Assembly (NCBI GenBank): GCA_043810865.1
Contig: JBDRNS010000005.1
Coordinates: forward strand, 2,821-66,820
Origin: an archaeon
Lineage (GTDB): Archaea > Nanobdellota > Nanobdellia > Pacearchaeales > GW2011-AR1
Length of the DNA: 64,000 bases
Direction of reading: 5' to 3'
The notes under the pieces were generated by a model. It saw only the letters and a list, made by a program, of their open reading frames with translations. It was not told the origin of the DNA and did not search any database. Made by a program: the position numbers and the translations under genes. The first letter of the stretch is position 1; every line of letters begins with the position of its first letter. Positions 26,058 to 58,898 of this stretch are shown here, piece after piece.

Positions 26058-26177
26058 CTGAAGAGTAATTATTTAAATTTATTTCTTAAGTTAGTTCATT
26101 AACAATTCCACACAAAAATTTATTCTGCTTAATTTGTTTCCTTCTACTCACGACCTAATTTTTTCTCTTATTAAATT

Positions 26178-26420
26178 GTTCCCACCCACCTCAAAAACAA
26201 ATTAATTAATAATGAAATTCTTGAAGAATAATAATCTCTACCACAAAGTTGCTTGCCCACCCAAAGAACTTTTTTAACTAATTTTCACCCACCCGAAATT
26301 TGTCTCACTCGCAAACTCACCCGAATTGATAATTTAAAATTTAATAGAGAAAGTTTTTTAGTAGGAACATTAGAGGTTGCAGGATTACTAGAAAATTGCT
26401 TATTTAGATTAGAAGAATCT
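26178..26420. repeat. Mosaic intergenic repeat family, copy B
   Basis: 'GTTCCCACCCACC...AATTAATTAATAA', 'AAATTTGTCTCACTCGCAAACTCACCCGAATTGATAATTTAAAATTTAATAGAGAAAGTTTTTTAG', '...TTAGAAGAATC'. Confidence 0.6.
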
Positions 26421-26440
26421 GTTAAAATTTTTTAAGAAAT

Positions 26441-31188: not shown

Positions 31189-31248
31189 AAAGTTTGGAAG
31201 TAAAATGACTTATAAATTTTTCTTTTAATATCTTCTTATTTAATTTAA

Positions 31249-31374
31249 ATTGCGTTCGCTTAACTCACTATTGATAATTTTAAATCTTTTTATTGTAATT
31301 TGTTCCCACCCGCCCACCCTTCAAGAAAATTTTAATAAAGAGTATTTTTTAGCAAGGAGGTTAGAAGTTGCATG
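31249..31374. repeat. Mosaic intergenic repeat family, copy C
   Basis: 'GCGTTCGCTTAACTCACTATTGATAATTTTAAAT', 'GTTCCCACCCGCCCACCC', 'TTTTAATAAAGAGTATTTTTTAGCAAGGAGGTTAGAAGT'. Confidence 0.6.
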
Positions 31375-31496
31375 AAATTTATTTTCTTTTTTTAAATTAT
31401 TCCTACTTTACTCGTAAAAGCAATTATTGATAGCGAGATAAATAAGGCGAGCAATGTTTCAACAAAATTTATAACCCTTTCTTTCTTTTTGGTTTT

Positions 31497-33473: not shown

Positions 33474-33561
33474 AAATACCTTTTATTTTTACTAATTCTT
33501 TTTTATTTTATTTAAGATAAGTTGTTTAGAAATTTATCCTTTCTGATTGATTAAACATTTT

Positions 33562-33656
33562 GCGCTCACTTCGTTCACGATTAATAAGGGTATTAATTAA
33601 AAAATTACCTGTTTTGTGTTAACAATTAGATTATACGGGTGAAGCGAGACAAATTT
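33562..33656. repeat. GC-box intergenic repeat, copy H
   Basis: 'GCGCTCACTTCGTTCACGA' 19-mer is identical to the reverse complement of a 19-mer in copy I (60468-60490); 3' box 'GGGTGAAGCGAGACAAATTT'. Confidence 0.55.
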
Positions 33657-33731
33657 AAATAAACTATATTGAACGAAATGTATTTATTAAACAAAATATT
33701 CTAAATAAATAAAATTTATGCAGAAGAATAA

Positions 33732-38403: not shown

Positions 38404-38443
38404 ATATCAAAATCTTTAAAAAGCTGTAATTTTACGAATTATC

Positions 38444-38620
38444 ATGTGTGCCGGAAAACCTATGTCCATCGGGGGGAAAGCGCTTGAAAGCATGGCTACA
38501 GAAGGAAGAAGTGTGCACGGTTTTGGTGGAAAGAGCCATAATCACGGTTATAGTGATGGTTCTTATGAATTAGGTTCATATAAGGGCTCAACAAATTATT
38601 CTTCTGGCGGTTACGACTGA
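38444..38620 (+). CDS. small Gly/Ser/Tyr-rich ORF (58 aa), uncertain
   Basis: 'MCAGKPMSIGGKALESMATEGRSVHGFGGKSHNHGYSDGSYELGSYKGSTNYSSGGYD'; locally elevated GC. Confidence 0.2.
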   Translation: MCAGKPMSIGGKALESMATEGRSVHGFGGKSHNHGYSDGSYELGSYKGSTNYSSGGYD

Positions 38621-39346: not shown

Positions 39347-39778
39347 TTAATTATGCGGAATGAGATGTTTTTTTATAGTGCCGTCAACTTCCTGCATGAT
39401 TTTGAATTCTTCTCTCATTATTTCTACGGGGGTTATTCTTTTATCTCCATTTTCACCATCAATTTCTTTAAGAATTAACTCAAGCTGTTTTCCATGACTT
39501 TGTTCGTCATAAGACTGATTTGTAACTAAATATCTTCCATTATCTTCTCTTACAGTGTAATCTCCTGCTTTTATTATTGCGAATTGTTTTAGTGTACTGA
39601 CATATTCTGTAGGCACTGTATATCCTTTAAGTATAGAAAGTCCGTCAAATCCCGGGAGATTCAAAACTTCCTGTGCAGAAACCGACGGCGCAACTGCAGC
39701 ATATCCTAATGCTCCTGCCAAGCCCTTAAGAAAATTTCTTCTTGATGTTGGTTTCATCAAATTTCTTGCGAAAAACAA
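39347..39778 (-). CDS. secreted protein with twin-arginine-like signal peptide
   Basis: 'SRRNFLKGLAGALGYAAVAPSVSAQE'. Confidence 0.5.
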   Translation of the reverse strand: MFFARNLMKPTSRRNFLKGLAGALGYAAVAPSVSAQEVLNLPGFDGLSILKGYTVPTEYVSTLKQFAIIKAGDYTVREDNGRYLVTNQSYDEQSHGKQLELILKEIDGENGDKRITPVEIMREEFKIMQEVDGTIKKHLIPHN

Positions 39779-40024
39779 TTTTTAAATCTTTCTGTTTTGT
39801 TATTATTATAGAATTAATACAGATTAAGGATGTGTCTTTTTTGAGTGGAAAGAAACATATAAAAACTTTTCATCATTAAATTTTTGGTAATAATAAAGAG
39901 GTAGACAACCGATGAAAAAGAAAGGAGCAAAGGGAAAGAAATCTAAGAAATAAGTTAACTCTTTTTAATTTTATTTTTCTTTTTATTTTTCTTTTTATTT
40001 TTTAAGTTTTTGTTTTTTATAAAT

Positions 40025-40288
40025 TGCGTTCGCTTCGCTCACGAATTGATAATTTAATTTTAATAGAGAAAGATTTTTGAGTTGAGAGATTGAAATTAAT
40101 TTTTTGTTTTTAACTTTTAATTTTGTTCCCACCCGCCCACCCCTAAAAATAGTTAATAAAAAAGATTTTTTAGCATAGGGTTAGAATCCCAATAATTTGA
40201 TTAACTATCCAGAAGTTCTTTTTGTTAACATTAAGCCAATAAGCGAGCACGAAGTGCGAGCGAAGAAAGGTGGGTGGAGCGAAAGAAA
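40025..40288. repeat. Mosaic intergenic repeat family, copy D (most complete copy)
   Basis: 'GCGTTCGCTTCGCTCACGAATTGATAATTTAATTTTAATAGAGAAAGATTTTT', 'GTTCCCACCCGCCCACCCC', 'AGTTAATAAAAAAGATTTTTTAGCATAGGGTTAGAATCC', terminal 'GCGAGCACGAAGTGCGAGCGAAG...GGTGGGTGGAGCG'. Confidence 0.65.
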
Positions 40289-40293
40289 TGTTT

Positions 40294-40542
40294 TTATTTC
40301 TTTTTCTTAATTTTCAGACATCTGCTTGTTATGATTATTATGAACAGAAAAGTAAATAGGAGATAATCGTTCCTAAAAAATAAACTCGCAATTGCGCCGA
40401 GCAAACTTGCGAGAATTATTAACTTGAAGTATTTTTGTCCTTGCGCAAGTTCTTCTCTTGTGAATTTTGCGAGCAGATTTCCGATGGGTATTCCGAGAAT
40501 AAGAATGAAAATTCCGATTAAAAACTGAGTTAGTTGTTGCAT
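40294..40542 (-). CDS. small membrane protein
   Basis: Two hydrophobic helices; 82 aa. Confidence 0.4.
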   Translation of the reverse strand: MQQLTQFLIGIFILILGIPIGNLLAKFTREELAQGQKYFKLIILASLLGAIASLFFRNDYLLFTFLFIIIITSRCLKIKKKK

Positions 40543-43570: not shown

Positions 43571-45205
43571 CTATTTTATTTTTCTCAAATGCTCAAAACC
43601 CTCTTTTGCGACCAGCAAACCAAGAACAAACATTCCTAAAGAAATAACTGCAAGAATGTAATTTCCTGAAGAGAAATATCCTTCTGTTCTAAAAGTAAGA
43701 TAAAGAAGTGCAGACATCGTGGTCACTAAAACCAAAAGTGCAGGGATTACAATAAACTTGACTTTTATTTTCTTTGACAAAAAATAAGATGAAACAGCAA
43801 TCATTGTTATGGATGCAATTAATTGATTTGAAGTTCCGAAAAGTCGCCATAGTGCTTCGTAGGAATTTGTAACTGCCAAAAGCCATGCAGGAATAAGAAT
43901 TAAAATTGTTATCAGAATTTTATTTTTTCTTAACTTTGGCATCAGGGTTTCTGAAATTATGAATCTGCTCAAACGTGCAGAGGTGTCTACTGATGTTAAA
44001 ATAAACTGATTTACCATAAAGGCGCCGAGAAGAGATGCAATAGTTATTGTCAGGAACGGAATTCCAATACTGCCGACGATGTTTCCGTAGCCGGATGAAA
44101 ATAAAATTATCCAGCCCTTTCCCAGTTCTGTCTGGAAAGTTCCCTCGCCTATTCCCCACTTTAGCCCTGCAACAGCGACGAGCGTAACGAAAACAGCGAG
44201 AGTTCCTTCACCAATCATACTTCCGTAACCGACTGCTTTCCCATGGGACTCTTTTGCAAGTTGCTTGCTTGTTGTTCCACTTGCAACCAAACCGTGAAAT
44301 CCTGAAATCGCGCCGCATGCAACTGTTATGAATAAAATCGGCCACAAAGGAAAGACAGAATTGGAGATATACTGCGGCGCATTTATCAACGGGCGAACGA
44401 GCAAAATTCCCAAAATTCCAAGGAACAAAATTATTGACATTTGGATTGCACTTAGATAATCGCGAGGGCGAAGAAGAATCCAGACAGGAATTACAGAAGC
44501 AATGCCGGCATATAACAGAATAATTGTGATTAAAATATTTTTCAGCAAGACGGGATTAATAAAAGACAAGTCAACAGGGTATTTTACACCAATCCAAACA
44601 GAGGTAAAAATCAGGATAAGTGCTGCAGCAGAAGAAATTTTATAATTCCATTTGTATTTTTCAACTCCTACACCAAGAATAACTGCAAGAAGCGTTATTG
44701 TTGCCAGAGGAATTATCAAGTCCGGTTTGTAAATAATGCTGTCTGCTGTCGAGACGCTGAATACAGTTATAATTAAGATTAATGTTACGAGAATCATCAC
44801 TGCAAACAAAGTTCCTGCTCTTGAATTCAAACTTCTTTTCGCAATTTTTGAAACGCTTTCCGCCTTGTTTCTTACAGATGCAATCAGGGAAGTGTAGTCA
44901 TGCATTGCTCCGATGAAAACGCTCCCGATTCCCACCCAAAGAACGACGGGAAGCCAGCCGAAATAACTTACAGCTAAAATCGGGCCTATAATCGGACCTG
45001 CGCCGGCGATTGATGCGAAATGATGTCCTATCAAAAACGGTTTTTCTGCAGGAGAAAAATCAATATTGTCTCTTTTTGTCACGGCAGGTGTTTTATTTTT
45101 GTCGCTAATTTTCAGCCGTTTCTCTATAAATTTTCCGTAAATTCTGTAGCCGAGAAAAAACCACAAACCAACAATTAAAACAATCCAGACGGAATTCATA
45201 CTCAC
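43571..45205 (-). CDS. cstA: carbon starvation protein A family transporter
   Basis: Polytopic membrane protein; 'IGHHFASIAGAGPIIGP' CstA signature. Confidence 0.75.
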   Translation of the reverse strand: MSMNSVWIVLIVGLWFFLGYRIYGKFIEKRLKISDKNKTPAVTKRDNIDFSPAEKPFLIGHHFASIAGAGPIIGPILAVSYFGWLPVVLWVGIGSVFIGAMHDYTSLIASVRNKAESVSKIAKRSLNSRAGTLFAVMILVTLILIITVFSVSTADSIIYKPDLIIPLATITLLAVILGVGVEKYKWNYKISSAAALILIFTSVWIGVKYPVDLSFINPVLLKNILITIILLYAGIASVIPVWILLRPRDYLSAIQMSIILFLGILGILLVRPLINAPQYISNSVFPLWPILFITVACGAISGFHGLVASGTTSKQLAKESHGKAVGYGSMIGEGTLAVFVTLVAVAGLKWGIGEGTFQTELGKGWIILFSSGYGNIVGSIGIPFLTITIASLLGAFMVNQFILTSVDTSARLSRFIISETLMPKLRKNKILITILILIPAWLLAVTNSYEALWRLFGTSNQLIASITMIAVSSYFLSKKIKVKFIVIPALLVLVTTMSALLYLTFRTEGYFSSGNYILAVISLGMFVLGLLVAKEGFEHLRKIK

Positions 45206-45238
45206 CTCTGAAAGAAAAAAGAAGAAGAGTTTATATTT

Positions 45239-46039
45239 TTAACTAAAATACCTCACACCATTTCTGAAGATTTGCATGCCTAGATATTCTGACGGAATTT
45301 CTTTTCCTTCTCTTGTAAGTTGTTCTTTTAATAGTGTCCAATGAGGATGTTGTGTGAAATTAATTGCTCTTTCCGGATGAGGCATCATTCCAAGCAATCT
45401 CCCTGATTCGTCGGAAAGTGCGGCGATATCGTCAAGAGAACCATTTGGATTTGCAGGCAAATCTTCTGCTTTGCAAATTTCTCCGCGAGCATATCTTGCG
45501 GCAATCAAATTTTTTTCATTAACCATTTTTAAAGTTTCAGGAGTCGCATATAATTTTCCTTCCCCATGTGCAATCGGGAAACTTGCTTTTTCCAATCCGC
45601 GAGTCCAGACACTGTGATTTCCAAATCTCAAATCAACCCATCTTGCATTATATCTTGGGAAATCATTATCAACAAGTGCAACTTGTCTTTCTCCATAATT
45701 TTTGTTTTGAGCAGGAAGCAATCCTAAGTTTACCATTACCTGAAAGCCATTGCAAATTCCAAGAACAAGCTTGTCTTCTTCAATAAATTTAAGAAGTTCT
45801 TCCCACAAATGATTTTTAATTCTGTTTGCCAAAGCATTACCTGCTGCTGTGTCATCGCCGTATGAAAAACCTCCGGGAAATGCCATTATTTGGTAATCAG
45901 ATAACTTTCTATGTCCGTCGATTAAATCGTTAATGTGAATTAATTCTCCTTCTGCTCCTGCCTGCTTAAATGCAAATTTTGTTTCTTCATCACAATTGAT
46001 TCCATATCCTGTTAAGACCAATGCTCTTGGTTTTGCCAT
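45239..46039 (-). CDS. purQ: phosphoribosylformylglycinamidine synthase I (glutaminase subunit)
   Basis: Class I GATase 'GICNGFQ', 'HGEG' region. Confidence 0.8.
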   Translation of the reverse strand: MAKPRALVLTGYGINCDEETKFAFKQAGAEGELIHINDLIDGHRKLSDYQIMAFPGGFSYGDDTAAGNALANRIKNHLWEELLKFIEEDKLVLGICNGFQVMVNLGLLPAQNKNYGERQVALVDNDFPRYNARWVDLRFGNHSVWTRGLEKASFPIAHGEGKLYATPETLKMVNEKNLIAARYARGEICKAEDLPANPNGSLDDIAALSDESGRLLGMMPHPERAINFTQHPHWTLLKEQLTREGKEIPSEYLGMQIFRNGVRYFS

Positions 46040-46040
46040 T

Positions 46041-49013
46041 TTAAAAATTTCTAAAAGTTGATTTATATGAATTTAACATGTGATTAAAGTTTGTGTCTAC
46101 AACTGTGTCTCCATTTTTTTCATTGACAATAAATCTGCAGTCCTTTCTTACAACACCGATTTTTGCAATGTAAGTTCCTTCCATTGCTTTTTCAAATTCA
46201 GAAACATATTCAGGATTTACTGTGACAACTAATCTTCCCTGGCTTTCTGAGAAGAGTGCGTAATCATTTCTGTTCTCTGAATTTTCCAATTCACTTAATG
46301 AAATTTCCATTCCTAATTTCCCCCCCATCGCTGTTTTTGCAAGAGCGATTCCTAATCCTCCTTTTTCAACACTTTGCGCAGAAGCGATTAATCCTCTGCT
46401 TAATGCCTGCGAGAATTTATTGTAAAGCATTCTGTTTTCTTCTGCGTTAACTACCGGAACATTATTTCCCACAAATCTTTCGCCTCTTATTTGTTCGCCC
46501 TGCATTGCAAAATATTCAGAGCCACCGAGTTCTCTTCTGTCTTTTCCTAAAACATAAACAATGTCTCCAGGCATTTTTGCATCAAGGGAAATTGCTTTTC
46601 TTACATCATCCATAACTGTAATTGAAGAAACAAGTAGCGTCGGTGGAATGGAAATTTTTACAGGATTTCCTTCTTCATCAAACCCCTTGAAATCATTGAA
46701 CATGCTGTCTTTTCCTGAAATAAAAGGAGTTTCAAATGCTACTGCAGTGTCATAGCATGCCTGAACAGCTCTTTTTAATTGCCATAATCTTTTTGCTTCA
46801 TCTGAACTGCACCAGCAGAAATTATCCAGCAAGGCAATGTTTTCTAATCTTGCACCGACGGAGACGGCATTTCTTACAGCAGTATCAATTGCGGCTGCCG
46901 CCATATTATATGTGTCAATATCTCCGTAACTTGGACATAATCCATGGGACAAAATAACTCCTTTGTTTGAATCAAGAACAGGGCGAACTATTGTTGCGTT
47001 TCCGTTTACTCTTCCTTTTCCCTGCAGTGGTTTCAGGACAGAGCCCCCCTGAACTTCGTGGTCATACTGTTGTGAAATAAATTCAGAGCTTGCAATATTT
47101 TCTCTTCCTAACATTGAGTGCAAAATTTCTGTCAGGTTTTTCGGCTGGGAAAATTCAGGTTCTTCATGAATTTGTTTTGTAAATGTTGTCTCCATAGGCC
47201 TTTGAGGCAGTCCATTGTGAAGAAAATCCATATCAAGATCCATTACTCTTTCACCTTCGTAATCAACAACACAATTTCCAGAGTCAGTAAATTCTCCAAT
47301 CACTGTTGCTTCAACCCCTCTCCTTTCCATTAAGTCCGAGAATTCATTCCATCTATTTTTTGGAACAGACAAAGTCATTCTTTCCTGTGATTCTGAAATC
47401 CAGGTTTCCCAAGGTTGTAATCCAGGATATTTGAGAGGAACTTTGCTTAAGTCAACATAACATCCTCCTGATTCTTTTGCCATTTCTGCAACAGAACATG
47501 ACAAACCTCCTGCACCATTATCTGTAATGCTGTTGTATAGTCCGAGATCTCTTGCTTCTTTTATAATCGCATCACTTAATTTTTTTTGAGTTATTGGGTC
47601 GCCGATTTGAACAGCTGTTGCAGGGCTTCCTGAGTCCATTGCTTCTGAAGAAAAAGTTGCTCCGTGTATTCCGTCTTTTCCGACTCTTCCTCCAACCATA
47701 ACCACGAGGTCTCCCGGCATTGCTCTTTTTTCGTATGAATTCCTTCCTGCGCTTTCTTTCGGCATTAAGCCCACTGTTCCGACGAAAACCAACGGCTTTC
47801 CCCTATATCTTTCATCAAAATAAGCAAAGCCCTGAGGGGTTGGGATTCCTGACTGATTTCCTCCCACATTAACACCCCTTACAACACCTTCAAGGATTCT
47901 TCTTGGGGAAAGCATTCTCTGGGTTTGATTTTCTCCTTTGTATAAAACTCTTTCATCATCGGGAAAACCAAAACAAAAACCATATACATTAATTACTGGT
48001 TTTGCCCCCAGTCCTGCACCGATTGCATCTCTGTTAACTCCGACGATTCCTGTAACAGAGCCGCCGAAAGGATCCAGAGCAGAAGGAGAGTTATGCGTTT
48101 CAACTTTGTGTGTGATATAATGTTCATTATCAAACTTAATTATCCCTGAGTTATCTGTAAAAACAGAAACACAGAAATCTTTTTCACCTTTTCTTCTTCT
48201 AATTTCTTCAGTGGCCCCTTTTATGAATGTGTTGAATAGTCCGTCGGTGAATTCGTCCATCGGGTTTGCAAAAATTGTGTGCTTACAATGCTCACTCCAT
48301 GTTTGCGCCAGAGCTTCCATTTCCAAATCTGTCGGGTTTCTTCCAAGCATTGCAAAATGATTTCTTATTGCATGTATAGAAGTTAAATCAAGAGCAAGAG
48401 GACCTCTTCGTGTTCCGTCGGGATTTGCAATTCCTTTTTTCCCGATTATTGCAAGTTCTTCGTCAGGTGCATGAAGAATGTCAACTAAATCAGCTCCTGG
48501 TTTTTCTAAAATCCTGACGCTTGGAACAATAACGTCCATTCCATCGTCGGCAGAGAACTCTGCATAACTTTTAACATGAATTCTTTGTATTAATGGATTT
48601 GCCAATGACCCTCCAACTCTTTTGGCATCTTCTTCTGTTAAATCGCCTGATAAAAAAGTTAATTGGGAAGTGTGAACAACTTGTCCGTCAAATTTTTTTC
48701 TTAATGCGTCACTAATTCCTTCTCTTGCAGTGTTTCCAACATTGTCTGTAACTCCCGGAAGAAGACCTGTTTCAACAGCGAAGCTGAATTCAGGTTTAAA
48801 CGAATTATCAACTCTTCCTTCCTGAAAAACAGGATTAGTTAACATACTTCTAACCTGTTCTAATTCTTTCCCTGTCAAATCATTTTCAACAGTGTAAACA
48901 TCAACTATTTTTACTCCTGTAATTCCAGAAAAACCAGCGGATTCAAGTTCTCTTTTTCTCGCGCTTGCTCTTGCATCAGATATTGTTCGCGCAACTCCTA
49001 TCCTGTGAGCCAT
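46041..49013 (-). CDS. purL: FGAM synthase II fused to an N-terminal PurS-like domain
   Basis: 990 aa; first about 80 aa PurS-like, then duplicated AIR-synthase-like PurL domains ('DNGAGGLS', 'GGSVTGIVG'). Confidence 0.8.
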   Translation of the reverse strand: MAHRIGVARTISDARASARKRELESAGFSGITGVKIVDVYTVENDLTGKELEQVRSMLTNPVFQEGRVDNSFKPEFSFAVETGLLPGVTDNVGNTAREGISDALRKKFDGQVVHTSQLTFLSGDLTEEDAKRVGGSLANPLIQRIHVKSYAEFSADDGMDVIVPSVRILEKPGADLVDILHAPDEELAIIGKKGIANPDGTRRGPLALDLTSIHAIRNHFAMLGRNPTDLEMEALAQTWSEHCKHTIFANPMDEFTDGLFNTFIKGATEEIRRRKGEKDFCVSVFTDNSGIIKFDNEHYITHKVETHNSPSALDPFGGSVTGIVGVNRDAIGAGLGAKPVINVYGFCFGFPDDERVLYKGENQTQRMLSPRRILEGVVRGVNVGGNQSGIPTPQGFAYFDERYRGKPLVFVGTVGLMPKESAGRNSYEKRAMPGDLVVMVGGRVGKDGIHGATFSSEAMDSGSPATAVQIGDPITQKKLSDAIIKEARDLGLYNSITDNGAGGLSCSVAEMAKESGGCYVDLSKVPLKYPGLQPWETWISESQERMTLSVPKNRWNEFSDLMERRGVEATVIGEFTDSGNCVVDYEGERVMDLDMDFLHNGLPQRPMETTFTKQIHEEPEFSQPKNLTEILHSMLGRENIASSEFISQQYDHEVQGGSVLKPLQGKGRVNGNATIVRPVLDSNKGVILSHGLCPSYGDIDTYNMAAAAIDTAVRNAVSVGARLENIALLDNFCWCSSDEAKRLWQLKRAVQACYDTAVAFETPFISGKDSMFNDFKGFDEEGNPVKISIPPTLLVSSITVMDDVRKAISLDAKMPGDIVYVLGKDRRELGGSEYFAMQGEQIRGERFVGNNVPVVNAEENRMLYNKFSQALSRGLIASAQSVEKGGLGIALAKTAMGGKLGMEISLSELENSENRNDYALFSESQGRLVVTVNPEYVSEFEKAMEGTYIAKIGVVRKDCRFIVNEKNGDTVVDTNFNHMLNSYKSTFRNF

Positions 49014-49056
49014 TTGCTAAAAATAATAATTTCTTTTTAAGAATTATTGTGATGAA

Positions 49057-49178
49057 CGCCCCGACCAGGAATCGAACCTGGATGTCCAAAAGGACCGCGA
49101 GTTCAGTGCAGTTCTTAGAAGGTGCGGAACCTCGGTTCTGCGTTCGAGTCGCGTGCAGTACCATTGTGCCATCGGGGC
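49057..49178 (-). tRNA. tRNA-Ser (anticodon CGA), type II, with about 41-nt intron (49102-49142)
   Basis: Acceptor GCCCCGA/TCGGGGC, anticodon stem CGCGA/TCGCG, loop CTCGAA|C, variable arm GTCC-TTTT-GGAC, T-arm CCAGG-TTCGATT-CCTGG, discriminator G; intron has central GCAG/CTGC helix (BHB-like). Confidence 0.6.
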
Positions 49179-49253
49179 TGAATATTTTAATAAAGGACAA
49201 TTTATAACTTTTATTACCAAAAAACTTATAAAAAACTTTACGATTGTTAATTT

Positions 49254-49862
49254 ATGGTTTTTGAACTTCCTCCCTTGGAATATCCGTATGAGTCACTTGA
49301 GCCGTATATAGATAAGGAAACAATGGTTATTCATCATGACAAACATCACAAAGCGTATGTTGACAAACTTAATGCGGCGATTGAAGGGCATGAAGAATTG
49401 CAGGACAAACCGATTGAAGAAATCCTGAAAAATATTAATTCTGTTTCAGAGCAAATCAGAACTGCTGTGAGAAATCACGGGGGAGGGCATTTTAATCATT
49501 CATTTTTTTGGACTTGTCTGAAAAAAGATGTCAAGCCAAATGGAGAAATCCTTGCTGCGATAATAAGAGATTTTGGAAGTTACGAACAATTCGCAGAACA
49601 ATTCAAAAATGCTGCTGTTACGCAGTTTGGAAGTGGTTGGGCTTGGCTTGTCTTAAATCCAGCGACGAGAAAACTTGAAATTATGCAAACACACGACCAA
49701 GAGTCGCCAATATCCTCGGGAAAAATTCCTTTGCTTGTCGTAGATGTCTGGGAGCATGCTTATTATTTAAAATACCAAAACCGGCGCCCGGAATATGTTG
49801 AGGCATTCATGAAGGTAATTAATTGGGAAAAGGTTGATGAGAATTTTGTTAAATCTATATGA
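49254..49862 (+). CDS. sod: Fe/Mn superoxide dismutase
   Basis: 'HHDKHHKAY', 'DVWEHAYY'. Confidence 0.9.
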   Translation: MVFELPPLEYPYESLEPYIDKETMVIHHDKHHKAYVDKLNAAIEGHEELQDKPIEEILKNINSVSEQIRTAVRNHGGGHFNHSFFWTCLKKDVKPNGEILAAIIRDFGSYEQFAEQFKNAAVTQFGSGWAWLVLNPATRKLEIMQTHDQESPISSGKIPLLVVDVWEHAYYLKYQNRRPEYVEAFMKVINWEKVDENFVKSI

Positions 49863-49866
49863 TAAA

Positions 49867-50085
49867 ATGCAAAAACAATTAATCACGAAAAATACAAACT
49901 TAATGGAACTCGTTGAAAAATATCCAGAGGTTGTTGAAATTTTAATGGGTTATGGTTTGCATTGTGTCACATGCACTTTTTCGCAGTTTGACAGTTTGGA
50001 AAATGGAGCGAAATTGCACGGAATGTCAAAAGATGACTTTGAAATGATGCTGAAGGATTTGAATAAATTGATTAAGGATTATTAA
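49867..50085 (+). CDS. DUF1858 redox-disulfide protein (CxxC)
   Basis: 'ELVEKYPEVVEILMGYGLHCVTCTFSQFDSLENGAKLHG'. Confidence 0.55.
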   Translation: MQKQLITKNTNLMELVEKYPEVVEILMGYGLHCVTCTFSQFDSLENGAKLHGMSKDDFEMMLKDLNKLIKDY

Positions 50086-50332
50086 TTGGGGGTTTGGGAT
50101 AGTGGGGCATTTCAAGCTCTCCTGTTTCAGGATTTAATCGTGCAGTTTTTTTACAATAGTCACCTAATTCAGGATCGTTTCTTGCTGCGGATCTTCTGCT
50201 ACAGTAATCACGGAGTTGTATGTGATATTCAATTACAGATGTTAAACCTTGATTTTTGGGAGCATAATTTGTCACACATCCTGCCATTAAAAGTGCAAGT
50301 CCCACCAAACCTAATTTTGTTCTTGTTTTCAT
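50072..50332 (-). CDS. small lipoprotein (bacterial-type lipobox)
   Basis: 'LALLMAGC' lipobox; 3 further Cys. Confidence 0.45.
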   Translation of the reverse strand: MKTRTKLGLVGLALLMAGCVTNYAPKNQGLTSVIEYHIQLRDYCSRRSAARNDPELGDYCKKTARLNPETGELEMPHYPKPPINNP

Positions 50333-50486
50333 TTTATTTTCCTGATTTTGTTATTTTTAAGAATTTATATGGTAAAAATTTGAATGAATTTATCAGAGAG
50401 ATTTAAGATTAGTAAAACATAAATGAACACAATAAAACTTTTAAATGTCTGTTTTTACTCATAAAAGCTAATTAGTAAAAAGTAAA

Positions 50487-50828
50487 ATGGATATAGTAAT
50501 AAAACCACAATATGATATTTTAGATACGATAAAAGATGCTTATGCTACTTTTAGTGATGTTGTTATGTCTTACGCTATAGGACTACAAATGGCGGCACAA
50601 GATGTCAAGAATGTTGTCAAGCCAGTGGGGCTTGCATTAATACTTGTATCATCTTTTGCATTTGGAGGTTGCCCTTCTGGAAATAGTGTGGATTATCAGA
50701 GGTCGCAAGTCAGACAGGAAGAGCAGGGCCCTAATAGAGTTAATATACCTTCTACATACCAACTACCAATTACAGATGGTATCGGTGGAGATTCATGCAG
50801 CGGATGTCTTCCTCCTGCTCGGAAGTGA
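50487..50828 (+). CDS. hypothetical protein
   Basis: 113-aa ORF; internal 'AFGGC'. Confidence 0.3.
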   Translation: MDIVIKPQYDILDTIKDAYATFSDVVMSYAIGLQMAAQDVKNVVKPVGLALILVSSFAFGGCPSGNSVDYQRSQVRQEEQGPNRVNIPSTYQLPITDGIGGDSCSGCLPPARK

Positions 50829-50869
50829 TTAAATTTATTCTTCTTTAATTTAATCTTTACCTAAAGTTT

Positions 50870-51021
50870 GCCTCACTCGTAAACTCGTTCGGGATTGATA
50901 AAAAATTTAATAAAAAAAGATTTTTTAGCGGTGAGATTAGAAGTGCAGGTAATTGATTAACATTTATTCGGAGTTTTTTTATTAACAATTTACTTCAATC
51001 GTGAGCAGAGCGAACGCAAAG
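50870..51021. repeat. Mosaic intergenic repeat family, copy E
   Basis: 'GCCTCACTCG...CGTTCGGGATTGATAAAAAATTTAATAAAAAAAGATTTTTTAGCGGTGAGATTAGAAGTGCAGG'; 3' 'CAATCGTGAGCAGAGCGAACGC' is the reverse complement of the copy D 5' box. Confidence 0.6.
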
Positions 51022-51048
51022 TTTTTTAACAAGTTGAAAAATTAAAAA

Positions 51049-52035
51049 TCAAATAATCCCTTCTTTCAAGATATCATTCCAGCTTTTTACATCCAAAGCC
51101 ACGAGAGCTTCTTTAAATGTCAGAATTGGTTTGTTGTATTTTGCATAATCATCAAGTGCAATTCGCGGGCAGGCGAGCTCTATGAATGCGTCAATTTTGT
51201 AAAAGTTCATAATTTTGTCAGGTGTGAGTTCAGACATTGTAATTAAGATTGGTTTTTTATTTTTTTCTTTTAACTTGTCAAGCAGATATTTAGGATTTCC
51301 AAATTTTTGCCCTGGTTTTATTTCAACAATTATTCCAACTGTTTTTGCATCTTTTAATTTTTGGATTGAGATTGCCCTTTGCTTCAGAATTTTTTCTCTT
51401 AAACCAGCCATGCTTCTGACATTGTCATTGTAAACATCAACCAAAATAACTGGTTTTTCAACTGAGAGAACAGCGCCCATTGAATGAAATTGATTTCCTA
51501 TAATTACAAAGCAATCAACGTTTTTTTCAATTGCTTTCAAGCCGAGATACTGGCAGCCGACAATGTGCCCTTCATATTCCACAAGTCCGAGTTTTTTTGA
51601 CAGCAAGACATTTTTCCCATTTTGTTCATAAAATGATTTTATTTTTTCCACATCATGTTTGTGCTGAATTGAGTAACTTAATCCAAGAGTTTTGAATTCT
51701 TTTAATTCATTAAGAGATTTTTTCAAGATTGGTTCAAGGTTAAGTTCATCTTTTACTTCAATGTAGAGAACAGGAAAATTAACATGAACAAATTCTGCGT
51801 GTCCGAAATGAACAATCAAATCAACTCCCAAGTCCTTGGCTTCCTGAACAGCGACGCTGCACGCGCCCCAGGATGTTTCTCCTGAAAAGATAACTTCTAT
51901 TCTGAGTTTTTCAATTGTGTTTGCAATTTCTTCTGCATTTTGCTTTATTCCCTCTGCTAACTGAACAAGAACTTTTTTTGGTTTTCTTTTTTTAAGCTCT
52001 GATACGAGTTTTGGGATTTCAAAGTTGAGAGGCAT
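51049..52035 (-). CDS. dph2: 2-(3-amino-3-carboxypropyl)histidine synthase (Dph2)
   Basis: 328 aa; 'GETSWGACSV...GVDLIVHFGHAEF' and conserved Cys in three pseudo-repeats. Confidence 0.65.
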   Translation of the reverse strand: MPLNFEIPKLVSELKKRKPKKVLVQLAEGIKQNAEEIANTIEKLRIEVIFSGETSWGACSVAVQEAKDLGVDLIVHFGHAEFVHVNFPVLYIEVKDELNLEPILKKSLNELKEFKTLGLSYSIQHKHDVEKIKSFYEQNGKNVLLSKKLGLVEYEGHIVGCQYLGLKAIEKNVDCFVIIGNQFHSMGAVLSVEKPVILVDVYNDNVRSMAGLREKILKQRAISIQKLKDAKTVGIIVEIKPGQKFGNPKYLLDKLKEKNKKPILITMSELTPDKIMNFYKIDAFIELACPRIALDDYAKYNKPILTFKEALVALDVKSWNDILKEGII

Positions 52036-52084
52036 AGTATTTTATCTTCAATATATTTTTAAAGTGTTTGCTTTAGTTTGATTT

Positions 52085-52366
52085 ATGAAATTATCAAATA
52101 TTTTGGCTGTGGGATTAGCGATTGCTGGTGTGGGTGTTTTTGGGAGTTGTGTTACCATGACTGCTCAGGAAAGATATTATCAATGTGTTGAGAGAGTTTC
52201 TGAAGATATGAGAAACATAAGAGAAGGGATTCAGTTTAATTTAAGAAGAGTCGGGAGTTCTCAAAGTTCTGCTAAAATATTTAATGGAAGATATGGAGAG
52301 GTTTATGCCCGTGCTTGTGAAGAAGAATATGGTGATTTTCAGAGAGAGTTGAAGAATTCTGATTAA
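52085..52366 (+). CDS. small lipoprotein, possible paralog of 50072-50332
   Basis: 'GVGVFGSC' lipobox; 'CVTMT' start and Cys spacing like 50072 'CVTNY'. Confidence 0.4.
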   Translation: MKLSNILAVGLAIAGVGVFGSCVTMTAQERYYQCVERVSEDMRNIREGIQFNLRRVGSSQSSAKIFNGRYGEVYARACEEEYGDFQRELKNSD

Positions 52367-52926
52367 ATCTTTCCAACCAAATCCAAACCCGGCTTTAATG
52401 TTTTGCTTCCTGGTTTCCAATTTGCAGGGCAAACTTCTCCGCCGTGCTCTCTTGTAAATTGCGCGGCTTGTATTTTTCTGATTAGTTCATCTGCGCTTCT
52501 TCCAATACTGTTATCATGAATTTCAAATGCTTTCAAAATTCCGTCGGGGTCAATTATAAAAGTTCCTCTCAAAGCCAAACCCTCTTCTCTTATGTATGTT
52601 CCGAAAAGACGTGAGAGTTTTCCTGTCGGGTCTGCAAGCATTGGGAAATTAACTTTTTTTATTGCAGGCGAATTATCATGCCATGCCTTGTGAACAAATT
52701 CTGTGTCTGTTGAAACACTTAGAATTTCTGTGTTTAACTTTTTAAATGTCTCATAATTATTTGCGAGTTCTTCAAGTTCTGTCGGGCAGACAAATGTGAA
52801 ATCTGCAGGATAAAAGAAAACAACAATCCACTTGTCCTTATAGTCAGCGAGCTTTATGTTTTTTATTTTCTCTTCATGAAATGCCTTTGCTTCAAATTCC
52901 GGGACTTTTTCATTTATGCGTATCAT
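52363..52926 (-). CDS. 2-Cys peroxiredoxin (AhpC/TSA family)
   Basis: Peroxidatic 'FTFVCPTE', resolving 'EVCPANW'. Confidence 0.85.
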   Translation of the reverse strand: MIRINEKVPEFEAKAFHEEKIKNIKLADYKDKWIVVFFYPADFTFVCPTELEELANNYETFKKLNTEILSVSTDTEFVHKAWHDNSPAIKKVNFPMLADPTGKLSRLFGTYIREEGLALRGTFIIDPDGILKAFEIHDNSIGRSADELIRKIQAAQFTREHGGEVCPANWKPGSKTLKPGLDLVGKI

Positions 52927-52965
52927 TTTAATTTAGAATGGTTAATGTTTAAAAGTTTTGTTGTT

Positions 52966-53235
52966 CTAAAACTCAATCTTAACATCGCTGTTTTTTATTC
53001 TGCACTGGCATGCAAGCCGGTGTTTTTTGTCGCGTTCCAAATCCATTTCTTTTTCTGTTAGTTCTGATAAATTATTTTCTCCTGATATAACATCAATCAT
53101 ACATGTTCCGCAAGTTCCTTTTGAGCAATTGAACGGAACGCCGAGTTCTTCACATGCTTCACGAATTTCATTTCCTTCCTGAATTTCAACGAAATCATTT
53201 GTTAGGTTATTTATTATTTTTGGCATAAAAAACAA
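52966..53235 (-). CDS. fdx: [2Fe-2S] ferredoxin
   Basis: 'CSKGTCGTCM...LACQC' Cys spacing. Confidence 0.6.
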   Translation of the reverse strand: MFFMPKIINNLTNDFVEIQEGNEIREACEELGVPFNCSKGTCGTCMIDVISGENNLSELTEKEMDLERDKKHRLACQCRIKNSDVKIEF

Positions 53236-53256
53236 AGAAAAAGGTTTTATATAAAA

Positions 53257-53541
53257 TTAACTCTTTAGTCGGGGGTTTGGGAATCTTTTGTTTTTTAGGA
53301 AATTTCTTACTAAGTCCCCTTCTACACTTCCTTCAGTTACAGGACTAACTACTGAAATGTCAACGCCATTTTCTTCTCTTATTCTGTAATTTCTAATATA
53401 ACCAATAACTTCTGTTTCTTGAGTTCTTTGAACATATAAATCTACTCCTCTATGAAGAACAACCAATAAATTTCTTTCGTTGTGGTGCAGTATTCTCTCT
53501 TTTAATCCAGGAAGATGACGATATTCAATTGTTTTAGCCAT
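53257..53541 (-). CDS. hypothetical protein
   Basis: 94-aa ORF. Confidence 0.3.
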   Translation of the reverse strand: MAKTIEYRHLPGLKERILHHNERNLLVVLHRGVDLYVQRTQETEVIGYIRNYRIREENGVDISVVSPVTEGSVEGDLVRNFLKNKRFPNPRLKS

Positions 53542-53591
53542 ATTATTTTCTAGAAGGTTTATTTATAAGAATTTATGTTTTACATCAGTTA

Positions 53592-54539
53592 TTACTCTTT
53601 GTTGATATATTCATAAGCGCTGTAAGCTGCTGTGCAACCGTCGGCGACTCCTGTGATTAATTGTTTAAACGGTTTGTCTGTCACGTCGCCTGCCGCGAAA
53701 ATTCCAGAGATGTTTGTTTCAGATGTCATGTGATTTATTATGATTTCATTTTTTTTATTTAGTTTTACGCCGAGCGGTTTTGCCAAATCAGAAAGAATAA
53801 TGTGCCCGATTGCGATGAAAATTCCTTCCAATCTTAATTCTTTGCTTCCTTTGTATTGTTTGTCCAGAATAACTGACTCGACATTATTTTTTCCTTTAAC
53901 TTCAACAATGTTTGTGTTGTTTATTACTTCTATTTTTTTGTTGTTTTTTATTCTTTGCAAGTTTATTGGTTCTGGATGTATCTGGGAACCCCGGTAAATT
54001 ATGTAGACATTTTTTGCGTGTTCGCTTAAAAGAAGAGCGTCTTTTGCCGCGCTATCCGAGCCGCCCACTACTGCAATTGTTTTGTTTTTGTAGAGCGGAC
54101 CGTCGCATAAAGCACAGTAACTTATTCCTCTGTTCTCAAATTCCCTGCTTCCTTTTACATTTTCAGGAAGTTTTCTCCATTTTGTTCCTGTCGCAAATAA
54201 AATAGTTTTTCCTTCATAAGAATTTTTGTTTGTTTTTATAGAGAACAAATTTTTTTCTTTTTTTATATTTTCAACTTTTTCATTTTTTATTTCAACCAAA
54301 TCATAACTTCGCGCGTGCTCTTCAATTTTTTTTGCGAGTTCAAATCCTGAGAGTTTTATGAAGCCAGGATAGTTTTCAACTATGTTTGTTGTTGTTATTA
54401 CGCCGCCGACAGGCAGTTCTGTTCCGTGTGTAAAACCCAAAACCAGAGTTTTCATTCCCAGACGTGCAGAATACATTGCTGCTGCCAGTCCTGTTCCGCC
54501 TGCGCCGATTATGATGAAGTCGAATTTTTTTTCTGCCAT
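53592..54539 (-). CDS. trxB: thioredoxin-disulfide reductase
   Basis: 'FDFIIIGAGGTG' FAD motif, 'CALCDG' redox CxxC, 'VVGGSDSA' NADPH motif. Confidence 0.85.
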   Translation of the reverse strand: MAEKKFDFIIIGAGGTGLAAAMYSARLGMKTLVLGFTHGTELPVGGVITTTNIVENYPGFIKLSGFELAKKIEEHARSYDLVEIKNEKVENIKKEKNLFSIKTNKNSYEGKTILFATGTKWRKLPENVKGSREFENRGISYCALCDGPLYKNKTIAVVGGSDSAAKDALLLSEHAKNVYIIYRGSQIHPEPINLQRIKNNKKIEVINNTNIVEVKGKNNVESVILDKQYKGSKELRLEGIFIAIGHIILSDLAKPLGVKLNKKNEIIINHMTSETNISGIFAAGDVTDKPFKQLITGVADGCTAAYSAYEYINKE

Positions 54540-54579
54540 TCTCTTAAAAAGAGTGATTTGTTTTTAAAAGTTTGCAGAT

Positions 54580-55941
54580 TTATAATCTTCTCTTGTAAAA
54601 AATCAAGGAAAACATTATTACATATCTACTTATTATGCTTGCAATTATTGCCCCATAAACTGCAAATAATTGCCCGTTGACAAGGAAAGTTTTTATGAAA
54701 GTATATGTAAGAATTACATTAAGGATTGTTGAAAGAATTAAAATTTTTGAAATCATTCTTGGTTTTCCTCTTGATATAAAATATGTTTCATAAAGAGATA
54801 TAATTGGATTGGAGATAATCACAATGGAAAAAATTCTTAAAATACCTGATGATACTGCGTAAGAACTTCCATAGATAATATTTATAATTAAAGGAGAAAA
54901 GATTATTAATAAAATCACAGAAATTAAGGATAGTAAAATTGTTACGCCTAAAAACTTATTAAAATCCCTTTCAATTTCTCTTTTTCCCAGCTTGCTGAAT
55001 ACCGGAAGCAGTGCAGCAGAAAAGGTTATTAATGCAATGATTCCTCCGACAAGCCCAAAGACAGCTCTGTAATAACCAACAAAATCTGCCAGGACAAAGT
55101 GCCCCAAAAACAAAATGTCTATTTCCCCGAAGAATAATCCTGATATGGCTATTGAAGGCATTGCAATCATAAATTTATTAATTTTTTTATTTTCACTTTC
55201 TGTTAGTTTTTCTTCTTTATGTCTTAGAAAATCAAATTTTTCTCTGGAAAAAAAGTAAATTATGGTAGTAGCAAATAATAATGAACCAGTTAGCCCAATG
55301 ATTATGAGTGAAATATTTATCTCATTGGAAAGAGAGTATTTTAGTCCAAGAATTATTAAAACGGGAACAATAATGACTCTTATTACCTGAAACAGGGTTT
55401 CTTTCCAGAAGATATTTTTAAAACTGTTTGAAGAAAACATTATGTCTTCCAAGATCTCAGAGATTCCGAGTAGAATAAGATATAATGCTCCTGCGATAAA
55501 ACCAAGGAATAAGGGCTTTTCAAATATATTATTTGCGAGATATCTCGAAACCAAAATTAAGGTAATCATTGAGGCGAACACAAGAAAAATTTTGATTTTT
55601 AAAAAATAAACAGCATATGCTTTAGCCTTAGCTTTTTTATTTCTTCCGAGTTCTTTTGAGATAAATCTTACAAAAGCGCTTCCGATTTCCAAATCAGAGA
55701 ACAGAGCAAAAACCATTATTACTGCAAGAACAATGCTATACAATCCGAAGAGCTCAGGCATCAAAAGTCTTGCAATTATTATTGTGAATATTAGGGAGCC
55801 AATCCTTGTAGCAAAAGAAGTAAGCATCATGAAAAAACTGTTTTTTATTTCAAGTCCTTCGCTTCCTGAAAAATCCTTTTTTCTTATTCTGTTGATAAAT
55901 TCTTTCAGAATAAACTCCTCTTTTTTCAGTAATTTGTTCAT
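54580..55941 (-). CDS. MOP-superfamily polysaccharide flippase (Wzx-like)
   Basis: 453 aa, about 12 TM helices. Confidence 0.6.
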   Translation of the reverse strand: MNKLLKKEEFILKEFINRIRKKDFSGSEGLEIKNSFFMMLTSFATRIGSLIFTIIIARLLMPELFGLYSIVLAVIMVFALFSDLEIGSAFVRFISKELGRNKKAKAKAYAVYFLKIKIFLVFASMITLILVSRYLANNIFEKPLFLGFIAGALYLILLGISEILEDIMFSSNSFKNIFWKETLFQVIRVIIVPVLIILGLKYSLSNEINISLIIIGLTGSLLFATTIIYFFSREKFDFLRHKEEKLTESENKKINKFMIAMPSIAISGLFFGEIDILFLGHFVLADFVGYYRAVFGLVGGIIALITFSAALLPVFSKLGKREIERDFNKFLGVTILLSLISVILLIIFSPLIINIIYGSSYAVSSGILRIFSIVIISNPIISLYETYFISRGKPRMISKILILSTILNVILTYTFIKTFLVNGQLFAVYGAIIASIISRYVIMFSLIFYKRRL

Positions 55942-55978
55942 AATGTGAATAAGAAAAAAATGTTTTTATAGCTGTTGA

Positions 55979-56593: not shown

Positions 56594-56632
56594 AAAAAAT
56601 CTACAAAATAGGGGTTTTTAAAAATTGCGAAA

Positions 56633-56703: not shown

Positions 56704-56793
56704 CTTAAAAGTAAAATTGTTTATCTGTTAAAAAGGTTTTCTGTCACCACTCTTTCCCAAAAACTTTTAAAGGGTTCTTCTCCTTGATTTATC

Positions 56794-58897: not shown

Positions 58898-58898
58898 A

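Follow-up and report, generated by a model that had tools for sequence, protein, structure and literature searches.

The stretch of DNA analysed here (the window) comprises 64,000 nucleotides of a Pacearchaeales archaeon, taken from contig JBDRNS010000005.1 of assembly GCA_043810865.1. It is AT-rich (about 35% GC), archaeal in character and tightly packed with protein genes, among whose products are aIF5B, aIF2-gamma, gyrase A and B, IleRS, ArgRS, PurL, Kae1 and diphthamide synthase; an intron-bearing tRNA is encoded as well. The nearest relatives of the ArgRS are 69-71% identical and are labelled Nanoarchaeota or Pacearchaeota. For most genes a promoter motif, aaaayTTTAWAA, starts 30 nt 5′ of the ATG, and this layout is extremely regular (examples lie at 3434-3463, 4379-4408 and 31467-31496), so that nearly all mRNAs of the window are predicted to be leaderless. 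The subject of this report is a family of repeat elements in the longer intergenic gaps, each consisting of structured units arranged in outward-facing pairs. The family is real and undescribed, and the literature yielded no description of these elements.

Copies and modules of the family

Elements are present in 11 of the approximately 19 intergenic gaps of at least 90 bp and add up to 3316 bp, or 5.2% of the window, while the remaining eight such gaps have none. The gaps in question are 2360-2610, 4235-4408, 4718-5018, 19950-20192, 26058-26440, 31189-31496, 33474-33731, 39758-40293, 50829-51048, 60300-60553 and 62652-63039, and in this order they hold the elements A0, A1, A2, G, B, C, H, D, E, I and F. 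Together the elements contain at least 20 GC-rich boxes in addition to other modules, all of them far above chance expectation. Specifically, GTTCCCACCCGCCCACCC has three matches at up to three mismatches (0.01 expected from shuffles) and a variant at 62773, GCGTTCGCTTCGCTCACGA has six (0.00 expected), including the start of D (40026, + strand) and the end of E (50999, - strand), and AAAGATTTTTTAGC-N7-TTAGAAG has three (0.05 expected). One 19-mer is identical in H (33562, +) and in I (60471, -). A profile hidden Markov model (HMM) built from 18 boxes, with the consensus aaaTTTg-CTCRC-TTCG-CTCAC-n-ATTGATAA, detected no further significant box in the coding DNA of the window.

A preliminary description of this DNA had proposed a family of mosaic elements with four recurrent modules and inverted boxes at the element ends, lying between genes of any orientation. 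All four modules are found where they had been placed, as are the inverted boxes of D and E and the 19-mer shared by H and I, and the mosaic make-up, the inverted ends and the independence from neighbouring gene orientation hold up. The copies then listed are genuine, and the one at 2360-2610 has to be added to them. The inverted pairing stands with the refinement that the boxes always face outward; F comprises two pairs, and H is short (33555-33660). Collinear similarity of any length between copies is not there: they share short modules alone, the longest identity between any two being 19 nt and the best longer match 88% over 26 nt.

A strand-specific hairpin with tandem G·A pairs

Read on its purine strand, the GC box is a hairpin, 5′-(C)GU-GA-RC-GAA-GY-GA-AC(G)-3′, in which a tandem G·A/A·G step separates the outer pairs, two or three in number, from two inner pairs that close a loop of three bases (hereafter the GA hairpin). 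Twenty-five boxes, nine of the window and 16 of other contigs, were aligned with no model fitted, and G7, A8, G16 and A17 do not vary among them. Of the cells in the five stem pairs 89.6% are paired, compared with 77.0 ± 2.2% after shuffling, and the covariation score is 0.487 compared with 0.266 (0 of 500 shuffles in both cases). Two-sided changes occur in five of five stem pairs, and when the partners are slid against each other only 15-46% remain paired. Pair 9-15, an inner one, is never broken, with A-U in 17 boxes and G-C in eight. The stem may also be lengthened by matched inserted pairs, as with GCC/GGC at 2586-2604 and GCAC/GUGC at 40242-40262. GA hairpins start with CGUGA, GGUGA or AGCGA, and the longer boxes (left in E, left in G and in the middle of F) can be read as the same hairpin with UUU(A/G) loops.

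The two strands of the box are not equivalent. G·U outnumbers A·C by 11:1 in the unfitted alignment and by 39:10 in the model-fitted one described below, and on the other strand the GA steps become pyrimidine mismatches, so that the purine strand alone can fold. Folding of one strand only in turn excludes a cruciform as well as a symmetric site for a protein on double-stranded DNA. A strict search for the GA hairpin returns seven matches in the window where 0.73 are expected, all seven of them within elements; a generic pattern is not enriched in the window (35 matches, 29.7 expected), the enrichment being confined to the strict form.

The unit and its divergent pairing

The GA hairpin belongs to a longer unit. 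A metagenome scan with one box variant plus ATTRAT returned 78 loci, approximately 25 of which are AT-rich contigs (26-37% GC), many from groundwater, where the box stands in the context aaaTTttGG-TTCACTTCGTTCAC-n-ATTRAT. Seven units from seven contigs align over about 90 nt: the 5′ part is an AT-rich stretch with TGCATTAA followed by UUUCUNAGCGAA, and the 3′ part consists of a first hairpin, GAGYA-AUYAAU, the GA hairpin and AAAUU. The stems of the first hairpin vary from locus to locus yet stay complementary (AAAUUC/GAAUUU, AACAUUC/GAAUGUU, GCGUCG/CGACGC, GUGCUU/AAGCAC); RNAalifold returns this hairpin on both strands, with wobble pairs that fit the purine strand. A covariance model of the unit, run on the window and 42 loci, gave 57 matches (52 distinct), and in the resulting model-fitted alignment 87.0% of cells are paired (65.3% after shuffling) and 118 cells show two-sided changes (36 after shuffling; 0 of 500 for both). 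In the window, 16 of the 17 matches lie inside the elements, that is, in 5.2% of the sequence. The order of parts in a unit is thus an AT-rich centre, a variable covarying hairpin or a G-quadruplex motif, AUYAAU, the GA hairpin and AAAUUU; the unit, like its GA hairpin, is structured and strand-specific and carries compensating base changes.

Left units lie on the - strand and right units on the + strand in every element. The 5′ parts of paired units overlap at a central palindrome (TTAATGCATTAA in A1, TTAATACATTAA in F), and the fourth module of the preliminary description is a variant of this centre. The two arms of one pair have different first hairpins and each keeps its own. Divergent pairs also occur in other contigs (L183, L174 and L143). 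The contigs L123, L129, L135 and L183 derive from 0.1-um fractions of Hainich groundwater.

The C-rich box, read on the strand of the neighbouring hairpin, is GGGUGGGCGGGUGGG, a three-tetrad G-quadruplex (G4) motif. The window has four such motifs where 0.03 are expected, and three of the four are within elements, on the strand of the neighbouring hairpin and at the place of the first hairpin; this substitution of a G-rich box for the first hairpin of other units is seen in C and F. The fourth canonical motif, GGGATTCAGGGGAGCGGGAAAGGG at 24258-24281 (+), is within the adenylate kinase gene and outside the repeat family. Also inside a gene, that of Kae1/TsaD (on the - strand), is a C-rich run CCACCCGCCCCC followed by TTAGAAGTTGC (20553-20603, +); the latter is the same 11-mer as in element C (31361-31371), runs antisense to the coding sequence and may be either a chance match or an embedded module.

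The exact 17-mer of the C-rich box is also found in three Woesearchaeota or Pacearchaeota metagenome-assembled genome (MAG) contigs (L020, L041 and L113), where it is intergenic and stands beside box-like motifs. These three were the only DPANN contigs in a scan of a genome collection that otherwise gave mostly matches in high-GC Streptomyces; a viral collection gave three unrelated matches only. In two more distant genomes, L041 (a Pacearchaeota MAG, 5703-6270) and L113 (a Woesearchaeota MAG, about 1060-1180), the exact box is followed by AAGAAA(A)ATCAA(T)GT, and box-like units made of CCCAC and CTCAC half-sites are present. Given these two contigs, the family seems broader and more varied than the GC-box subtype.

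The elements along the window

In the following, bit scores are those of the covariance model, except for promoter scores, which come from a matrix that was trained on leaderless promoters of this genome, with TATA 30 nt 5′ of the ATG. In A0 the left unit (2441-2552, -; 29.9 bits) has a degenerate 3′ hairpin and overlaps with its 5′ part the right unit (2527-2612, +; 38.1 bits, also found by the strict hairpin search). The GA hairpin of the latter, AGC-GA-GCC-GAA-GGC-GA-GCU (2586-2604, +), has one extra compensating C-G pair and lies just 5′ of the promoter of a tRNA-like gene. The left unit of A1 (4205-4297, -; 88.2 bits, E = 5.8e-16) comprises the variable hairpin GUGCUU...AAGCAC (4236-4264), an AUCAAU linker and a GA hairpin (4213-4229); it aligns with units of six other contigs, the changes in its stems being compensating. 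Its partner (4274-4360, +; 33.1 bits) has the hairpin GAAUU...AAUUC, an ACAAU linker and a truncated GA box, CGUGAGCGUAC, and the palindrome TTAATGCATTAA occupies the centre between the two (4280-4291). A2 begins with a G4 motif, GGGGGUGGGCGGGUGGG (4790-4809, -; a C-rich box on the + strand), followed by a degenerate left box with ATTGATGA (4883-4913, -; box HMM, E = 0.0077) and a right unit with the half hairpin ACGAAGUGAGC (4951-5011, +; 27.8 bits and box HMM).

Element G has a left box (20062-20099, -; box HMM, E = 0.002), in which a GA hairpin GCGAC-UUU-GGAGU can be read, and a right unit (20103-20165, +; 24.3 bits) whose GA hairpin, CGU-GA-GC-AAA-GC-GA-GCG (20141-20157, +), was found by the strict search. 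B contains three C-rich boxes (26178-26190, 26253-26262 and 26285-26294, within 26160-26294; G-rich strand -). They are followed, in 26296-26383, by a left box with ATTGATAA (26296-26332, sense on -; box HMM) and by an AT-rich centre, TTTAATAGAGAAAGTTTTTTAG, with a UUAGAG module, for which the promoter matrix gives 6.3 bits and a predicted start at 26370. In C, the left unit (31245-31348, -; 25.9 bits) is made of a G4 motif (31305-31319), AUCAAU and a GA hairpin (31253-31269). The AT-rich centre (31327-31374, +), which is the fourth module mentioned above together with a conserved GUUAGAAGUUGC, reaches 9.2 bits with a predicted start on TTAGAAG. The right box, GCGAG...GGCGAGC (31431-31462, +), stands directly 5′ of the ArgRS promoter; a relative (L123) has kept both this promoter and the GCGAGCA of the box at the orthologous place. 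H consists of a left unit (33555-33628, -; 33.2 bits, strict search) with its GA hairpin at 33563-33579 and a right side (33625-33657, +) where AUUAGAUUAUAC precedes a degenerate box, GGGUGAAGCGAGAC (box HMM; promoter matrix 9.7 bits, predicted start 33625).

Element D (40019-40296) is the copy flagged in the preliminary description. Its left unit (40019-40093, -; 39.5 bits, strict search) has a GA hairpin at 40027-40043 and AUCAAU, with ATTGATAA at 40045-40052 (+) and a first AT-rich centre at 40053-40100. A G4 motif, GGGGUGGGCGGGUGGG (40128-40143, -), is followed by a second centre (40150-40204, +; promoter matrix 4.3 bits) made of TTAATAAAAAAGATTTTTTAGC (40150-40174), GGGUUAGAAUCCC (40178-40190) and then UUGAUUAAC. 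On the right are an extended GA hairpin with two extra compensating pairs, AGC-GA-GCAC-GAA-GUGC-GA-GCG (40242-40262, +), a G-rich run, GGUGGGUGG (40267-40279, +), and a run of five T (40291-40295). Just to the left of D lie a lysine-rich open reading frame (ORF) of 13 codons, MKKKGAKGKKSKK (39913-39954, +), with GAGGT 8 nt 5′ of it, and, between this ORF and the element, a T-rich tandem tract of repeated TTTTTCTTTTTATTTTT (39960-40015).

The left unit of E (50862-50940, -; 21.4 bits) can be read as a double GA hairpin, CCGAACGAG-UUUA-CGAGUGAGG, the centre (50903-50943) scores 10.4 bits with the promoter matrix, and the right unit (50957-51024, +; 24.6 bits, strict search) has a GA hairpin at 51000-51016, GCAAAG and a run of six T. 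Element I has a left unit (60328-60388, -; 20.1 bits, strict search) with its GA hairpin at 60336-60352 and a right side (60361-60492, +; 29.0 bits, strict search) with the hairpin AUGAUGAGC-GAA-GCGAGG (60436-60452) and a second GA hairpin (60472-60488, +) followed by five T. F consists of two pairs. In the first (62716-62839), the left unit (62716-62820, -; 20.3 bits) has a G-rich run at 62773-62790 and a box at 62723-62751, and an AT-rich centre is followed by UUAGAAUCAC on the + strand; in the second, the left unit (62863-62963, -; 27.4 bits) holds the hairpin GGCGAC-UUU-GGAGCGAAC (62871-62894) and the right unit (62940-63031, +; 34.9 bits) ends in AGUGAGC-GGUA-GCGACGG and then AAAUUUU.

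Occurrence in relatives and mobility

Two related contigs can be compared with the window over a longer range. L119, with an ArgRS 71% identical, is syntenic with 31.5-45 kb of the window; its gaps there are all 112 bp or shorter and contain no elements, and the covariance model found none in 37 kb of L119 and another contig, L121, as against 17 in the 64-kb window. L123, with an ArgRS 69% identical, is syntenic with 24.8-33 kb and has box-bearing elements at the positions of both B and C. At the latter position, 5′ of ArgRS, both the promoter and the GCGAGCA box can be aligned; at the former, only motifs are shared. Elements are located where gene content differs between relatives, and slow gain and loss of elements is evident. 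One GA-type hairpin, TGC-GA-GC-GATT-GC-GA-GTG, is present in L119 (9388-9405, -), in the variable gap between S7 and ArgRS that is the same hot spot as that of element C.

No genes for a transposase, a RAYT or an HUH protein were detected among 29 ORFs of the window that were scanned, the largest included. The elements do not fold as wholes into a long hairpin (z = -0.2), their arms have no complementarity beyond the boxes, and no near-identical copies were found in the window. Both flanks of an element have the conserved (C)AAATTT, which is palindromic and therefore indistinguishable from a target-site duplication. A classical, recently active transposable element of the miniature inverted-repeat type (MITE) is not supported by these observations, and neither is the suggestion of a MITE-like family made in the preliminary description.

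Other features of the window

Several features of the window concern genes rather than the repeat family. Exceptions to the leaderless layout are the genes at 61656-62651 and 43571-45199, which have a leader and a GAGGTG Shine-Dalgarno sequence. A strong predicted promoter (12.5 bits) at 19950-20000 (-) would give the gene at 19644-19949 a leader of about 50 nt with the hairpin GAACGA...UCGUUC, which is unusual among leaderless genes and may be a regulatory leader. Among the best promoter matches of the window (16.4 bits) is that at 38415-38444 (+), which targets the ATG at 38444 of a small unlisted ORF; at the syntenic place L119 has a gene of 43 amino acids (17430-17561). The stretch 2654-2870 (+) is a longer second copy of the intron-bearing tRNA at 49057-49178 (-; stretch 49046-49181), with 70 nt at 83% and 51 nt at 80% identity and a much larger insert. 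It is called neither by ARAGORN nor by Rfam, is overlapped by a mechanically derived ORF (2611-3432) and may represent either a pseudogene or a tRNA whose intron is unusually long or accompanied by another. Nucleotidyltransferase domains (NTP_transf_2 / Pol-beta) are encoded at 56794-58626 and 61656-62651, near a tRNA-Val gene and element F, and a Cas4-like PD-(D/E)XK nuclease at 10803-11672.

Proposed outward transcription of small structured RNAs

The interpretation that we put forward, with a confidence a little under even, is that the elements are divergent pairs (sometimes two) of short structured non-coding RNA units transcribed outward from a shared centre. The centre, AT-rich and partly palindromic, carries TATA-like sequences (TTAATGCATTAA or TTTAATAAAAAAAG-ATTTTTTAGC). 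Each unit would be transcribed as an RNA of about 40-120 nt, beginning with a structured module that is either a hairpin with a copy-variable stem or the G4 motif GGGUGGGCGGGUGGG, continuing with a presumably single-stranded AUYAAU linker and closing with the highly conserved hairpin of 15-19 nt, which has a platform of tandem sheared G·A pairs and a GAA-type triloop and is followed by (C)AAAUUU(U). The 3′ hairpin with its A/U tail would serve as a 3′-end module, be it a stop signal, a block to nucleases or a handle for a protein, so that the transcripts would end before the flanking, tightly packed leaderless genes. What the sequences show is the family, its strand-specific structure with covariation, its outward pairing and its spread in related archaea; that the units are transcribed, where exactly they start and what the hairpin does, we infer.

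From the gene map and the strands of the boxes, about every second hairpin lacks a gene upstream that runs in its direction; if they act in RNA, these hairpins therefore need promoters of their own. At the centre the promoter matrix scores 4-10 bits in six copies, that is, within the top 0.3-0.08% of positions, and sets the predicted start precisely at the conserved RTTAGAAG. A/T tracts come after the hairpins, and some of these contain four to six T. RNA is favoured because wobble pairs are tolerated, because TATA-like and T-rich sequences lie where transcription units need them, because the units face outward and because the linker is conserved. Covariation in two hairpins and the asymmetry of the strands thus agree with the preliminary suggestion of structured small RNAs, whereas the folding energies (z around 0) and the Rfam search give it nothing.

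Several observations weigh against this proposal. The putative transcripts have folding energies no better than those of shuffled sequences (z from -1.1 to +1.3); taken alone, such z-scores are uninformative, and the nearest-neighbour model credits tandem G·A steps and triloops little. The gene-trained matrix gives no consistent promoter 5′ of the best-defined units. The starts are ambiguous: the centre has two or three alternative TATA-like sequences per direction, and where the matrix does score, at the AT-rich centre, its +1 lies within what may be a small hairpin around UUAGAA. Runs of at least four T come after only some hairpins and behind a spacer of 3-7 nt, and a scan for bacterial-type terminators (44500-64000) flags no GA hairpin. 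In Rfam 15 no element is matched at E ≤ 5, only two tRNAs reaching the gathering score, so that membership of a known RNA family is not borne out either. As to the covariation, the metagenome boxes were chosen with a pattern that fixes the inner hairpin, which limits the independent evidence to the window copies and the outer pairs, and the covariance-model alignment is fitted to the structure that it displays. Finally, DNA confers a much higher stability than RNA on C(GAA)G triloops with sheared G·A pairs (PMC13037366), and the structure could therefore act in single-stranded DNA.

A number of more specific ideas were tried and rejected. Transcription starts at ATTGATAA with a TATA sequence upstream of the box would rely on sites that score below 2 bits with the genome-trained matrix. 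Small peptides or type I toxins read from ATTGATRA or UUAGAA are contradicted by ORFs that are inconsistent among copies and have no proper start codons. The 19-mers of H and I have the same orientation relative to their own units and thus do not give complementary RNAs, which removes the notion of GC tags in the style of split tRNAs. In a hammerhead ribozyme the sequence before GA would be CUGAN and not AUC-GU, and A14 is G in several copies; a hairpin-plus-U intrinsic terminator is at odds with the negative terminator scan and with T-runs that are absent after some hairpins and spaced from others. The defining features of CRISPR repeats and of origin recognition boxes (ORB) at a replication origin are absent.

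A wider proposal, which we make with somewhat more reserve than that of outward transcription itself, is that these self-contained cassettes of promoter, structured RNA and GA hairpin, set back to back, represent a very abundant and previously undescribed class of small structured RNAs in Pacearchaeota/Woesearchaeota-like DPANN archaea, with interchangeable G4 and hairpin modules at the 5′ side and an invariant GA hairpin by which a lineage-specific protein would attach. Insulation in both directions among leaderless, abutting genes could be a further role of the cassettes.

Alternative explanations

The same structures may act in DNA, in an interspersed element resembling REP/BIME/REPIN or Correia sequences, a possibility that we consider unlikely and nonetheless give real weight. 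Here the hairpins and G4 motifs would form in single-stranded DNA during replication, in transcription bubbles or in transposition and be recognised by a nuclease, a transposase or a primase with its gene elsewhere in the genome, the centre being a passenger. The C(GNA)G triloop with sheared G·A is indeed a classic ultra-stable DNA mini-hairpin, known from phage priming sites and the N4 hairpin promoters (PMC13037366), and the inverted ends, mosaic make-up and strictly intergenic location are BIME-like; copy density also differs strongly between relatives, the syntenic gaps of L119 being empty, and elements sit at sites of differing gene content. However, there are no near-identical copies and no recent burst, neither arm of a pair is a copy of the other, and transposase, RAYT and HUH genes are missing among the 29 ORFs scanned. 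Moreover, two sites with elements are common to a relative at only 69% ArgRS identity, G·T wobbles are tolerated, and T-runs and TATA-like sequences are placed as transcription units would need them. Less probable still is that the hairpins are purely cis-acting 3′-end, terminator or insulator signals of neighbouring protein genes, whose transcripts would run to the distal sense hairpin with no separate small RNAs. Convergent and tandem settings, where the distal hairpin is co-oriented with a gene 100-270 nt upstream, would suit such a role, as would the A/T tracts 3′ of the hairpins and a very compact genome of leaderless genes; for roughly half of the hairpins, however, there is no co-oriented upstream gene (for example both C boxes, the left ones of A1 and I and the right ones of G, D and F), several runs of six to seven T precede the distal hairpin, the variable first hairpin and the AUYAAU linker are conserved too, and most gene ends of the window have no such element.

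Two further explanations we regard as very improbable. For a classical MITE, in the sense of a DDE transposon reduced by deletion and bounded by terminal inverted repeats, the inverted boxes at the ends of every element and the size (100-310 bp), intergenic location and copy number of the elements would be as expected, but the copies resemble each other in short modules only, the whole-element fold is unremarkable (z = -0.2), no transposase is found among the ORFs scanned, and covariation together with an invariant, non-complementary GA within the supposed terminal repeat points to selection on a single-strand hairpin and not on a duplex site. If, on the other hand, the boxes were operators for a dimeric transcription factor controlling promoters in the AT-rich centre, their quasi-palindromic form and their distance of 10-20 bp from TATA-like sequences would make sense, but a symmetric duplex site should be palindromic throughout, whereas here the GA/GA positions are invariant and non-complementary; nor would such a site be expected to tolerate G·U while avoiding A·C, to vary in stem length by inserted compensating pairs or to be replaceable by a G4 motif.

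Comparison with known systems

Among cellular genomes, some of the smallest and most compact belong to DPANN archaea, and to our knowledge almost nothing is known of their non-coding RNA and gene control. Against this background, one family of structured units takes up 5% of a 64-kb stretch, is kept by compensating changes and is common to many uncultivated relatives. If the units are RNAs, they would form a new and abundant class, whose protein partner has yet to be identified; should their action be in DNA, archaea would have an equivalent of the REP/BIME type that works with mini-hairpin and G-quadruplex chemistry. In either case, the covariance model is a handle for annotating them in thousands of metagenome-assembled genomes, and the units are a defined target for metatranscriptomics.

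The Correia elements of Neisseria and the BOX elements of pneumococci are likewise abundant, modular intergenic repeats of 100-300 bp with inverted ends, promoter- or terminator-like sequences and RNA structures. Their copies are near-identical and have defined terminal inverted repeats (Correia elements also a TA duplication), whereas in the present family short structured modules alone are held in common, with compensating changes. The MITEs of archaea, such as the SM elements of Sulfolobus, are similar in being short, non-coding and multi-copy with inverted ends, but their near-identical copies are tied to known insertion sequence (IS) elements, which does not apply to the present family.

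Archaeal C/D-box small RNAs and their k-turns also come to mind, as small units, about 55-60 nt long, that are abundant and intergenic and have a tandem G·A pair as their conserved core. However, a k-turn has a 3-nt bulge that is missing here, where the outer pairs beside GA·AG are Watson-Crick and covarying, and C (RUGAUGA) or D (CUGA) boxes are absent save for one AUGAUGA at 60436, in line with the absence of an Rfam match. The d(GCGAAGC)-type mini-hairpins of the phage G4 and ssiA priming sites and of the phage N4 hairpin promoters have the same C(GAA)G triloop and sheared G·A pairs (PMC13037366), and GCGAAGC itself occurs in many boxes; those are single sites in single-stranded phage or plasmid DNA, in contrast to dozens of chromosomal copies with conserved flanking modules.

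Bacterial REP, BIME and REPIN sequences, which together with the Correia and BOX elements are the closest kinds, are short GC-rich intergenic hairpin repeats, alternating or inverted, that form mosaics with other short motifs and often lie at gene ends, with a presumed influence on termination and RNA stability. Hairpins of the REP kind are reported from bacteria and archaea at large, in a text that mentions neither DPANN nor Nanoarchaeota (PMC12306157), whereas the present host is a DPANN-type archaeon. Only one strand of the present hairpin, with its tandem G·A, can fold; neither the GTAG nor the CGTC head tag is present, and there is no RAYT among the window ORFs scanned. Unlike in a REPIN, the two boxes of a pair do not form one long hairpin (whole-element z = -0.2), and the members of a pair are not copies of each other but come with a second covarying hairpin or a G4 motif and an AT-rich, promoter-like centre. 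The family therefore differs from REP/BIME/REPIN, Correia and BOX elements in that it (i) shows no sign of a mobilising enzyme among the ORFs scanned, (ii) has a strand-specific GA hairpin, (iii) interchanges G4 motifs with hairpins, (iv) contains a second covarying hairpin and (v) arranges its units divergently around a promoter-like palindrome.

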